Notes: generated by a model not told the origin, from the sequence alone. DNA of 64,000 bases from a virus (IMGVR_UViG_3300019776_000693:32001-96000), one strand, 5' to 3'. Shown: positions 50,884 through 54,061, counted from the stretch's first letter. A program made the numbers and translations.

Positions 50884-51258
50884 TTATTGTGCATATTTAA
50901 AACCTAAAACATATATTGCTGATTTATGTTCATCTAAAATAAAAGAATTTCTTAAATTCTGCATATCTGTGGAAAGAGTTGATTTTCTAAGATTAGTTTT
51001 ACCTAATTCCAGGTATCCTTTACTTCTTAAATGTGTATTAGCCACTCTAATATCAATATCAGATTTTTTCTCATCATCTTTTATGTGAGACATAGCTTCT
51101 TCATTAAATCCATATTTGATATAGTATTTCATTACAGTCATTTCAAACTGTCTTATTGGACTTCTTTTTCCTATGGCGTATATTTGTAATAATAGTTCAA
51201 TTAACTCTAAATCATTTTTATAATCGACTATTAATGATGGGTATTTTTTATCGGTCAT
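50884..51258 (-). CDS. putative winged-helix DNA-binding protein
   Basis: IRVANTHLRSKGYL recognition-helix/wing pattern. Confidence 0.45.
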   Translation of the reverse strand: MTDKKYPSLIVDYKNDLELIELLLQIYAIGKRSPIRQFEMTVMKYYIKYGFNEEAMSHIKDDEKKSDIDIRVANTHLRSKGYLELGKTNLRKSTLSTDMQNLRNSFILDEHKSAIYVLGFKYAQ

Positions 51259-51472
51259 TTTTTATTTTAAAAGTGAATGTATTAAATAATATAGAAACTA
51301 ATATTCTTCTTATTAATGTTACAGAAATATTTCCGTCCATTTCGTAAATTCTGTAAAGGTCGAATGTTATAGTGTCGACAAACTCTTTGTTTTGAAGGAC
51401 AAATTCTTCTGAAATTATAGTACTGGAAATATTTCCCCAAAGTTCATTGTAGAACTCTTCAAAATTATACAT
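51248..51472 (-). CDS. hypothetical protein (74 aa), first gene of the leftward arm
   Basis: ORF track; directly downstream of the promoter at 51497-51528. Confidence 0.55.
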   Translation of the reverse strand: MYNFEEFYNELWGNISSTIISEEFVLQNKEFVDTITFDLYRIYEMDGNISVTLIRRILVSILFNTFTFKIKNDR

Positions 51473-51496
51473 TTATTATAATATTTATTTTAAAGG

Positions 51497-51528
51497 CAAA
51501 AATACAAAATTAAAAATTATTAAACAAA
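51497..51528 (-). promoter_or_regulatory. leftward Bacteroidota-type promoter (TTTG-N20-TATTTTTG)
   Basis: CAAAAATA 51497-51504 and CAAA 51525-51528; at the strand switch. Confidence 0.75.
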
Positions 51529-51627
51529 CTAGTTAAACTTTATTTATCATTTTTATATAAATTTATTTTTAACTAATTTGTATAATTGAAATATTTTTAT
51601 TAAATTGCGCCCTAATAAATACAAAAA

Positions 51628-51741
51628 CCTGCTCACCGTCCCTATAAATAGTCTAAGGAACTAAGAGGTAGAATCACTTTTCGGTGAAATAATGGTAGGA
51701 CATTTAAAAATCTAAGTGTAGGTAAGTTATAGGTGACTTAC
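51628..51741 (+). ncRNA. candidate structured RNA upstream of tRNA-Gln
   Basis: Nested stems CCTGC/GTAGG and TCACCG/CGGTGA, plus hairpin GTAAGTTA-TAGG-TGACTTAC in an otherwise AT-rich intergenic region. Confidence 0.4.
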
Positions 51742-51745
51742 AAAT

Positions 51746-51817
51746 TGATTTATGGTGTAACGGCTAACACGACTGCTTTTGGCGCAGTAATTTGAGGTTC
51801 GAATCCTTATAAATCAA
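51746..51817 (+). tRNA. trnQ: tRNA-Gln (anticodon TTG), no encoded CCA
   Basis: Acceptor TGATTTA/TAAATCA; D stem GTGT/ACAC; anticodon stem ACTGC/GCAGT with loop TTTTGGC; T arm TGAGG-TTCGAAT-CCTTA. Confidence 0.92.
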
Positions 51818-51832
51818 CAAAATTAAAAAATA

Positions 51833-51864
51833 TTTGCATATTATAATTTTTATCCTTATATTTG
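51833..51864 (+). promoter_or_regulatory. Bacteroidota-type promoter (TTTG-N20-TATATTTG)
   Basis: TTTG 51833-51836 and TATATTTG 51857-51864. Confidence 0.8.
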
Positions 51865-51884
51865 CATTTTAAAACATTACATAT

Positions 51885-51997
51885 CGGAGTTTATTTAGAG
51901 TAGTGCCTAAATAATCGAAAACAATAAAGACGAAAGTCCTATTAAACTTAAAACAACCGTGCACTACATTTGGTTGTTTTGTTTTTTAGGGCTTTTG
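51885..51997 (+). promoter_or_regulatory. 5' leader with two hairpins whose loops are complementary (kissing loop)
   Basis: Loop GTAGTGC (51900-51906) is the exact reverse complement of loop GCACTAC (51961-51967). Confidence 0.7.
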
Positions 51998-52010
51998 CGC
52001 ATTTATATAC

Positions 52011-52847
52011 ATGACAAAAAGAGTTTACATAAATAACGTAGAATATAATATTATCTTCAACATTAATTCTGTTGATTCAGATAAGTTATGTTCTGTTTTT
52101 GTTCATTTACGTGGCTCAAAAAACGGAAAAAGAAGATATTCTCCGCAAGGAAGATTTAGACACTTTTCATTATTAAAACAAGAAACAGGATTATCAAGAC
52201 ACACTATTGAAACTTATGTACCAATCTTAGTTAAATTAGGACTGGTTACTTTAAATTCTGATGGCGGGGTGTCTGTTATTGGCTTTGATTCTTCTTTTAA
52301 GACCTTTAGAACAACCAAATCTAAAAAAAAGTATATTCCTATTGAAATGCATAAATCGCATCTTAAAACGGCGGTTTCTGTTGGGAATGTGCGTATAATA
52401 AACTGCATAAATAATCAAAAAAAACATATCGACAAAAAGGATACGCAAACTAAACTATTTAAGAAACACTCCTTTCAAGTTAAAAATCCACATTTACAAA
52501 TTTTATCAAAAGCTGAAAAAAGAGCTATCGATAGATTGTTGACTAAATACGGCTCGGAAGAAAAATTCCTTTCTACTTATTGCGCAGAAACAATCCTAAG
52601 TCAAAAAGGTTTTACCAACCTAAATAAAAATAAAGACGGTAGATATTTTAAAAAGCAATTAGTAGATTGCGGAATGATTGAATCAAAAATTAGAGTTGAA
52701 AAATTAACAAATCAAATTAGTTATAAAAAATTCTTAACTTTAAAACAAACTATTATTTTAATTAATGGTAGAGGTATTTATTGGTGTCCTTTAGATAAAT
52801 GTGTGTATAAATATTTATCTTCTAGAATTAATAGTATTGTTTCTTAA
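52011..52847 (+). CDS. basic winged-HTH protein (regulator or replication initiator-like)
   Basis: LKQETGLSRHTIETYVPILVKLGLVTL wHTH pattern; Lys-rich. Confidence 0.6.
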   Translation: MTKRVYINNVEYNIIFNINSVDSDKLCSVFVHLRGSKNGKRRYSPQGRFRHFSLLKQETGLSRHTIETYVPILVKLGLVTLNSDGGVSVIGFDSSFKTFRTTKSKKKYIPIEMHKSHLKTAVSVGNVRIINCINNQKKHIDKKDTQTKLFKKHSFQVKNPHLQILSKAEKRAIDRLLTKYGSEEKFLSTYCAETILSQKGFTNLNKNKDGRYFKKQLVDCGMIESKIRVEKLTNQISYKKFLTLKQTIILINGRGIYWCPLDKCVYKYLSSRINSIVS

Positions 52848-53515: not shown

Positions 53516-54061
53516 ATGATAGATTATAAATTAATAAACGATTTAATATTATATTACGAAGATATAGGATTTAAAAGAATAGAAACACCTTGGTTAGTTA
53601 CAGAAGCAGTTGATTCAATAACCAGACCAAAAGAAATTGAACCATTTATTGTTCAAGCCAAGAAGAAAAACTTAATTGCATCAGGAGAACAAGGATTCTT
53701 ATATTTATATTTAAAAGAATATTTACCAAAAGGTACTTTCCAAACAGTTACACCTTGTTTTAGAAATGATAGTTTTGATTTCACACATTCAAAATATTTT
53801 ATTAAAAATGAATTAATAAAAACAGATAAAGTAGACAAATATTCTTTAGAACAAATGGTCACAAATGCAAAATATTTTTTTGACTCTCTTTTTAATACTG
53901 AAACAAATATTTTAGAAACAAATGATGGGTTTGATATTATGTTAGAAAATATAGAATTAGGAAGTTATGGTATAAGAAATTGTGAATTTTTAGATTGGAT
54001 TTATGGAACAGCATGTGCCGAACCAAGAACAAGTAAATTAATAAAATTATATAATAAATAA
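53516..54061 (+). CDS. minimal class II aminoacyl-tRNA-synthetase-like catalytic domain
   Basis: Motif 1 YYEDIGFKRIETPWL; motif 2 TPCFRND...HSKYFIKNEL; motif 3-like IELGSYG...GTACAEPR; only 181 aa. Confidence 0.7.
   Translation: MIDYKLINDLILYYEDIGFKRIETPWLVTEAVDSITRPKEIEPFIVQAKKKNLIASGEQGFLYLYLKEYLPKGTFQTVTPCFRNDSFDFTHSKYFIKNELIKTDKVDKYSLEQMVTNAKYFFDSLFNTETNILETNDGFDIMLENIELGSYGIRNCEFLDWIYGTACAEPRTSKLIKLYNK

Follow-up and report, generated by a model that had tools for sequence, protein, structure and literature searches.

Comparative evidence for a structured leader RNA with complementary hairpin loops upstream of a winged-helix gene of an uncultured phage

The window, by which we mean the whole stretch of 64,000 nucleotides that was analysed, corresponds to bases 32001-96000 of a virus record that is 130,620 bp long, carries direct terminal repeats and has a G+C content of 27.9%; its source is an uncultured Bacteroidota-type phage. 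Two divergent genes are separated by a gap of 538 bp, from the end of a leftward ORF at 51472 to the start of a rightward ORF at 52011, and this gap houses the subject of this report: a 5' untranslated leader of about 140 nt (51871-52010) that belongs to the rightward gene, an early-type gene for a winged-helix protein. In window coordinates, the features of the gap and of the gene are these:

51528-51497, minus strand: leftward promoter in the same intergenic gap
51746-51818, plus strand: tRNA-Gln gene (Rfam tRNA match), directly 5' of the promoter and leader
51833-51864, plus strand: host-type promoter, with TTTG at 51833-51836 (-33), a 20-nt spacer and TATATTTG at 51857-51864 (-7)
51884-51918, plus strand: P1 hairpin of the minimum free energy (MFE) fold, with outer pairs TCGG/TCGA
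51891-51914, plus strand: main stem of P1 and its loop, TTATTTAG (51891-51898), loop L1 AGTAGTGC (51899-51906) and CTAAATAA (51907-51914)
51900-51906, plus strand: K1, GTAGTGC, the loop-1 half of the kissing helix, complement of 51961-51967
51919-51923, plus strand: A-rich linker from P1 to the long hairpin
51924-51928, plus strand: P0 5' strand, AUAAA, partner of 52002-52006
51929-51938, plus strand: P2', an alternative hairpin (GAC-GAAA-GUC), mutually exclusive with P2
51931-51941, plus strand: P2 5' strand, CGAAAGUCCUA, partner of 51987-51997
51933-51941 and 51987-51995, plus strand: basal stem AAAGTCCTA/TAGGGCTTT, part of P2, with one U.G pair
51944-51947, plus strand: P2c 5' strand, AAAC, partner of 51981-51984
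51950-51980, plus strand: P3, the apical terminator-like hairpin, AAAACAACC (51950-51958), loop L3 GTGCACTACATTT (51959-51971) and GGTTGTTTT (51972-51980)
51961-51967, plus strand: K3, GCACUAC, the loop-3 half of the kissing helix
51977-51987, plus strand: U-rich run after P3, UUUUGUUUUUU
51987-51997, plus strand: P2 3' strand, UAGGGCUUUUG
52002-52006, plus strand: P0 3' strand, UUUAU, 5 nt 5' of the AUG
52011-52847, plus strand: ORF, the gene for the 278-aa winged-helix protein

A check base for base confirmed all hairpins, loops, complements and coordinates quoted in the initial annotation of this stretch, and also the ATG at 52011. The second hairpin of that annotation is P3, the tip of a long composite hairpin (P0-P2-P2c-P3) that it did not recognise, and its basal stem is part of P2. 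Scanning for the pattern TTTG-N19-21-TAnnTTTG located the promoter at 51833-51864, which fits the Bacteroidetes -33/-7 consensus; from its position, transcription is predicted to start at about 51870-51873. Equivalent full promoters are found 5' of the leader in 11 of 18 homologous loci. Other promoters of the same pattern that lie within 30 nt of an ORF stand 12-30 nt from it, as compared to 146 nt for the leader promoter, so the long leader is exceptional within this phage genome.

The 278-aa protein has 38 homologues (46-90% identity), all of them metagenomic, and matches no Pfam or PHROG family. A profile search returned 116 clusters of proteins of similar size; when ten distant relatives were compared with Pfam, three gave weak wHTH matches below the cut-off and seven gave none. 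The AF2 model (pLDDT 86.6) has an N-terminal winged helix, whose fold matches are weak and include ORC/Cdc6 winged-helix domains and wHTH regulators. Among solved structures the best match, tied with many wHTH proteins, was the plasmid replication initiator 4pta, 'MDR initiator' (Z 6.4, rmsd 3.4, 92 residues), and BFVD returned uncharacterised phage proteins, with replication proteins at E 0.008-0.03 only. In relatives the gene heads a block that includes RecA, RNase H and ExoX-like genes. A role as replication initiator or organiser is plausible but unproven. A search for cultured relatives gave no DNA match beyond the tRNA and no protein match in 50,697 phage records; Gundel_1 was considered as a relative and set aside, as it is not syntenic. 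Further downstream in the window, a 181-aa ORF (53516-54061) matches PHROG 4806 ('histidyl tRNA synthetase') at E 1.6e-37 and, weakly, Pfam families of the class II aaRS core, and is too short for a full synthetase.

Folding the leader of the window gave an MFE of -35.2 kcal/mol, against -20.7 +/- 2.9 kcal/mol for 200 dinucleotide shuffles (z = -5.0), and it ranks second in stability among the 140-nt regions upstream of 97 ORF starts of the genome. The most stable such region, at genome positions 111647-111790 (outside the window; -39.6 kcal/mol), contains a long near-perfect hairpin 5' of a 251-aa ORF.

We fetched 25 loci, which yielded 17 further distinct leaders and hence 18 with that of the window; the proteins encoded after them are 46-90% identical. 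Viral contigs supplied one locus, metagenome contigs five (two with unique full leaders) and genome contigs none, and the distant homologues P0040 and P0043 led to no further loci. By nhmmer and cmsearch, the leader is single-copy per genome and always 5' of the winged-helix gene family. Read side by side, all 18 leaders have a 5' hairpin followed by a long second hairpin, and constrained folds agree on the order P1, A-rich linker, composite hairpin P0-P2-P2c-P3. P1 is often bipartite, with outer pairs GUUU.../...AAAC, and the linker is A-rich in all relatives, at a length of 4-16 nt. The placement of the kissing segments is constant: in L1 the segment starts 1-2 nt into the loop and abuts the 3' arm of P1, and its partner in L3 lies directly against the 5' arm of P3, with 4-6 unpaired bases after it. 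A coaxial stack of the kissing helix between P1 and P3 would fit this constant asymmetry.

Complementarity between the apical loops is present in all 18 leaders and spans 6-11 contiguous Watson-Crick pairs (mean 8.0), whereas the 306 non-cognate loop combinations give 3.5 pairs and shuffled loops also 3.5. These values, those of the cross-control included, come from loops delimited by their own stems in a hand parse, which was made with the complementarity already known; the covariance-model test described below is independent of the parse. In every leader the cognate value is the maximum of its row, with two ties. The sequences that pair are at the same time highly diverse, with at least 16 distinct pairings among the 18 leaders: GTAGTGC/GCACTAC in the window; AGTGAAGC/GCTTCACT, GTGGGATG/CATCCCAC and AAAGGAGAG/CTCTCCTTT in other leaders; and GTAGCTGA/TCAGCTAC, GTTGCAGTT/AACTGCAAC and CCGTTAC/GTAACGG in further relatives.

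When the leaders were aligned with MAFFT, their structures fell out of register, and the hand parse, the cross-control and a covariance-model alignment were used instead. In an in-register alignment of five sequences the kissing helix is 100% paired, with double-sided changes in four of its eight pairs. From this alignment we built a covariance model that omitted the loop-loop helix, and used it to align 16 leaders; here the kissing helix is 93.9% paired and seven of its eight pairs show double-sided changes. The model misplaced L1 in the window and in leaders L009 and L025, and set the loops off-register in three other rows, errors by which the pairing and covariation figures can only be lowered. 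The two most divergent leaders, L022 and L024, were missed by the model, and their kissing pair was seen by the hand parse.

Across the whole structure, 87.5% of positions in the 16 leaders are paired, as compared to 69.4% with shuffled partners and 42-54% with slid partners; double-sided changes occur in 34 of 49 pairs, and none of 500 shuffles reaches any of the five measures. Such changes are found in 6 of 10 pairs of the P1 helices (95-96% paired), in 11 of 17 pairs of P2/P2c, where relatives have ACGG/CUGU, ACGU/ACGU, CAGA/UCUG, CUAA/UUAG and others for P2c, and in all nine pairs of P3. P0, which is AU-only and nearly invariant, is 82.5% paired, and its predicted pairing rests on prediction more than on covariation. 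The more stable fold is that of the sense strand in 17 of the 18 leaders (mean MFE -34.4 kcal/mol, vs -26.5 for the antisense strand), and the 18 predicted structures contain 68 G.U pairs, each of which would be an A.C mismatch on the other strand or would have no bearing on duplex DNA; together, the G.U pairs and the greater stability of the sense fold indicate that the element is a sense-strand RNA, and neither a protein-binding inverted repeat nor an antisense transcript.

As a check on its proposed kissing loop, the initial annotation had called for a comparison of homologous leaders, and in that comparison the complementarity is conserved by compensatory changes (18 of 18 leaders, with seven of eight pairs covarying). 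Since the loops stay complementary in all 18 leaders while their sequences differ, these comparative data, which we regard as decisive, indicate that the leader is a real structured RNA.

How fast the kissing segments change depends on the leaders compared. Over all pairs of leaders they evolve no faster than the P3 stem or the unpaired parts. Between the close relatives L012 and L006, 4 of 16 kissing positions and about 6% of stem positions differ, and in the closest pair of leaders most differences fall within the kissing segments. A separate observation concerns L024, the most distant leader: its apical hairpin (L024:2440-2460) contains GTGTAACGGCTAACA, a 15-nt exact match to the D-arm of the window tRNA-Gln (51755-51769), and its loop 1, CCGTTACAC, is the complement (chance expectation about 1e-5). 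A captured tRNA fragment might account for this, as might base pairing with a tRNA.

Translation in Bacteroidia and their phages starts without Shine-Dalgarno pairing, and only few cis-regulatory RNAs have been described for them. Searching Rfam 15 with window positions 51000-52600 at E up to 10 returned the tRNA-Gln and chance-level rows only, and at the gathering score the 16 homologous loci gave tRNAs only. A targeted literature search found no published description of such an element. We consider the leader, from its 18 distinct examples and from covariation that includes the tertiary loop-loop contact, to represent a new and well-supported RNA family.

The base of the long hairpin falls on the translation start. 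Between -20 and +3 of the start codon, a mean of 15.6 of 23 nt is predicted to be paired across the 18 leaders (at least 12 in 16 of them), with the AUG itself paired in eight. The window has 12 of 23 nt paired, leaving the AUG and the 4 nt before it free, and L022 has 5 of 23. Opening the start region is predicted to cost a mean of 14.0 kcal/mol across the 18 leaders; the cost in the window, 10.9 kcal/mol, ranks third among 97 ORF starts, for which the genome median is 1.3. Ribosomes of Bacteroidia initiate without Shine-Dalgarno pairing, and the secondary structure of the mRNA tunes them (PMC6847099), so that a structure burying the start should limit initiation. Moreover, because the helices that bury the start lie 3' of the U-run and covary, the full-length leader is under selection, and not only a terminated stub. 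This pattern points to translational gating as at least as well indicated as attenuation.

On balance we think it probable that the leader gates translation initiation in cis and that the kissing loop is the latch of this gate; attenuation at the U-run possibly contributes as well. In the ground state, prediction together with covariation shows P2 and P0 at the base of the long hairpin to pair most of the 20 nt 5' of the AUG, and with this base closed the winged-helix gene would be poorly translated unless the base opens. We infer that the 5' strand of P2 and P0 can refold as the local hairpin P2', giving an open conformer, and that P1 and P3 are stacked through the kissing helix. Given the short linker (4-16 nt), this coaxial stack would be hard to combine, in cis, with a fully zipped rod of about 35 bp, and would suit the open conformer better; kissing and full zippering would then exclude one another. 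The kissing loop could in this way balance a zipped (off) state against an open state made of P2' plus the kissing helix. The predicted kissing duplex (mean -11.0 kcal/mol over the 18 leaders) is similar in size to the cost of opening the start (about 14 kcal/mol), which fits a balanced switch. The U-run after P3 possibly adds transcription attenuation, and candidate triggers include temperature, Mg, the kinetics with which the nascent RNA folds, and a protein, for instance the one that the gene itself encodes. The most likely function of such a leader would be to dose the amount of winged-helix protein made.

Folding of leader prefixes bears on the open conformer. P2' forms in eight of eight prefix folds that end before the 3' strand of P2. 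Of 17 leaders, 15 form this hairpin when its segment is folded alone, at -2 to -5 kcal/mol and with a mean z of -1.26; stems in relatives include GAC/GUC, GACG/CGUC, GACUU/AAGUC, AGCUU/AAGCU and AAAGA/UCUUU. Thus the competing GAC-GAAA-GTC hairpin of the initial annotation does recur in relatives and in all eight prefix folds, but it is weak and not individually significant. These predictions are consistent with an open conformer that contains P2', and do not prove it.

A promoter-proximal attenuator would account for several of the same features, and we hold it possible, if rather unlikely, as the main function of the leader. In such an attenuator P3 and the U-run would stop most transcripts at about 51981-51987, leaving an RNA of about 110 nt, and a phage or host factor would permit read-through into the gene; the kissing interaction would pre-organise an otherwise poor terminator with a 13-nt loop or, when blocked, weaken it. 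The terminator-like character first ascribed to hairpin 2 is borne out: in 17 of the 18 leaders P3 is succeeded by a run of at least 4-6 U, which fits attenuation equally well. The stems of P3 covary, but they are AT-rich, containing 2-4 G-C pairs and enclosing loops of 12-18 nt, and a terminator consensus scan made no call at the P3 site. K3 adjoins the 5' arm of P3, so that L1 could capture K3 before P3 closes, and the competing hairpin P2' exists; much of the U-run, however, is paired with an A-run inside the long hairpin. Beyond the U-run lie the 3' strands of P2c and P2, and both helices covary strongly, which argues that the read-through RNA is itself under structural selection. Attenuation may in any case coexist with translational gating rather than replace it.

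RNA stability or processing seems an improbable primary role. The long irregular hairpin might be a target of a double-strand-specific RNase or a protective 5' structure, and could set the half-life of the mRNA or separate the message from read-through transcripts that begin at the upstream tRNA genes. RNase III substrates occur in phage early leaders, and the composite hairpin of about 35 bp resembles them; in the window, and in 5 of 16 homologous loci scanned, tRNA genes do adjoin the leader upstream on the same strand. Such a role does not explain why a hypervariable loop-loop contact should remain strictly complementary, nor why, in nearly all relatives, the hairpin has its base at the start region.

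Covariation within identical molecules does not distinguish intramolecular from intermolecular pairing, and L1 of one RNA might instead pair with L3 of another, either in dimers or by action of a short leader on nascent leaders. The variable pair would then give each phage an address of its own, as happens in incompatibility or immunity under antisense control. We regard such a trans-acting or self-associating RNA as decidedly improbable. At least 16 pairing sequences among 18 leaders, and the concentration of differences at kissing positions in close relatives (L012 vs L006), would suit an address of this kind, and the short linker would make kissing in cis sterically awkward on a zipped rod. 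Over all leaders, however, the kissing segments are not faster evolving, and so give no signal of special diversifying selection. No conserved minus-strand promoter of the TAnnTTTG type, the type searched for, was found in or near the 18 leaders. Neither loop sequence has further copies in the loci (1-6 kb each), where only the two leader sites occur; genome-wide, matches to the loop 7-mers fall in unrelated surroundings, without a match in their flanks or a hairpin around them, so the genome provides no convincing extra target either. Between the loops and the start region (-18 to +30), complementarity was 3.6 and 3.9 nt (L1 and L3) within the same leader and 3.4 and 4.0 nt in cross-combinations, so that neither loop is complementary to the start region and no third pairing site emerges. 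A descriptor scan of the genome for hairpin pairs with complementary loops gave 15 matches, as compared to 7-13 in shuffled genomes, which is no enrichment. The initial annotation had drawn on the antisense pairing of P4 CI and P1 C4 immunity and had suggested relevance to superinfection or the carrier state; with no antisense promoter, third site or convincing trans target found in these searches, that suggestion is not upheld.

There is an outside chance that kissing is intermolecular for a geometric reason: the fully zipped leader would be a rigid rod, with L3 at the tip and P1 tethered at the base by only 4-16 nt, so that molecules might join through reciprocal L1-L3 contacts as antiparallel dimers or chains, or a terminated short leader might act on nascent ones. 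Should this be so, expression of the initiator-like gene would depend on the concentration of the leader, and the hypervariable pair would be an address that tells self from co-infecting relatives.

A DNA-level element, in which the inverted repeats serve as protein half-sites or as an origin cruciform, is hardly credible: the downstream winged helix weakly resembles replication initiators, and replication origins often adjoin initiator genes, but the strand asymmetry (68 G.U pairs, with the sense fold about 8 kcal/mol more stable on average), the location on the transcribed strand between promoter and start codon, and the exchange of all bases with only complementarity kept, which binding sites would not undergo, all speak against it.

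The favoured reading, a cis-acting gate on translation, has a counterpart in the rep leaders of I-complex plasmids (ColIb-P9 repZ, and repA of IncB, IncK and IncL-M), which are described as forming a pseudoknot (Asano and Mizobuchi 1998, PMC1170848, via PMC10724649). Both kinds of leader lie upstream of a replication-initiator gene, a possible one in the phage, and in both, on the outline given in that account, a 5' hairpin loop pairs over a long range with a structured region further 3', in which the translation start lies; the I-complex pairing is there a molecular switch for translation, and it is in this respect that we liken the phage leader to it. As outlined in the same source, the I-complex loop pairs beside the ribosome-binding site, unlike L1 of the phage, whose partner is an apical loop some 45 nt away from the AUG. 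Antisense RNA and a leader peptide are likewise presented there as essential, whereas no antisense promoter of the TAnnTTTG type was found for the phage leader and no conserved upstream leader ORF is visible on inspection of the 18 leaders. The two share no sequence or Rfam relation.

The guanidine-IV (mepA) riboswitch also has two hairpins in a 5' leader, with kissing between the first and a hairpin that overlaps a terminator-like structure (PMC11611296), and in it, as in other kissing-loop riboswitches, kissing decides the fate of the expression platform (PMC11611296). Unlike the loops of that riboswitch, which are conserved for a ligand pocket, those of the phage leader are hypervariable, with complementarity alone kept through at least 16 pairings; the phage leader also lacks an Rfam match, precedes a winged-helix gene rather than mepA or an efflux gene, and has nothing that suggests a ligand. 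A third likeness is to pT181 repC, characterised in the review that cites it as a countertranscript-driven attenuator (Novick 1989, cited in PMC10724649), and to P4 CI and P1 C4, where a leader hairpin loop pairs by a terminator-like hairpin before the first gene and the pairing sequences could carry specificity. Those systems use a separate antisense or processed RNA and repeated targets, in contrast to the phage leader, for which searches found no antisense promoter of the TAnnTTTG type and no extra targets.

The leader precedes the first gene of a replication/recombination module, and it would be a compact natural system that combines a kissing loop, a terminator-like hairpin and a start-sequestering helix. 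Its variable, self-matched loop pair could serve as an orthogonal part for RNA engineering.

Several minor observations concern the region upstream of the leader. In the window, and in 5 of 16 homologous loci that were scanned (L003, L009, L010, L012 and L021), the leader is immediately preceded by tRNA genes of the same orientation, with up to 13 consecutive tRNA genes at L010:475-1974; given this position and orientation, read-through transcripts may include the leader. 5' of the tRNA in the window, 51609-51629 is 81% complementary to the 3' strand of P3/P2 (51972-51992) and resembles the leader's own 5' strand; long-range pairing between the two segments was considered and found unconvincing, as it is limited to the window and its closest relative, L009. 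The segment overlaps a multi-stem RNA that the initial annotation placed at 51628-51741. The leader promoter has a near-copy at genome positions 114882-114913 (outside the window; locus L002), with 80% identity over 54 nt; it sits 17 nt 5' of an ORF whose N-terminus presumably resembles an HNH/NUMOD-type endonuclease, and no structured leader follows it. Finally, four loci (L005, L007, L012 and L020) have an extra conserved hairpin domain (..ATCAATCCGTSYCC...GSACGTTAAAA) about 60-150 nt 5' of the leader, between it and the upstream promoter or tRNA. This domain has no match in Rfam, and it shows apparent compensatory changes, with CGTC/GACG as against CGTGC/GCACG.
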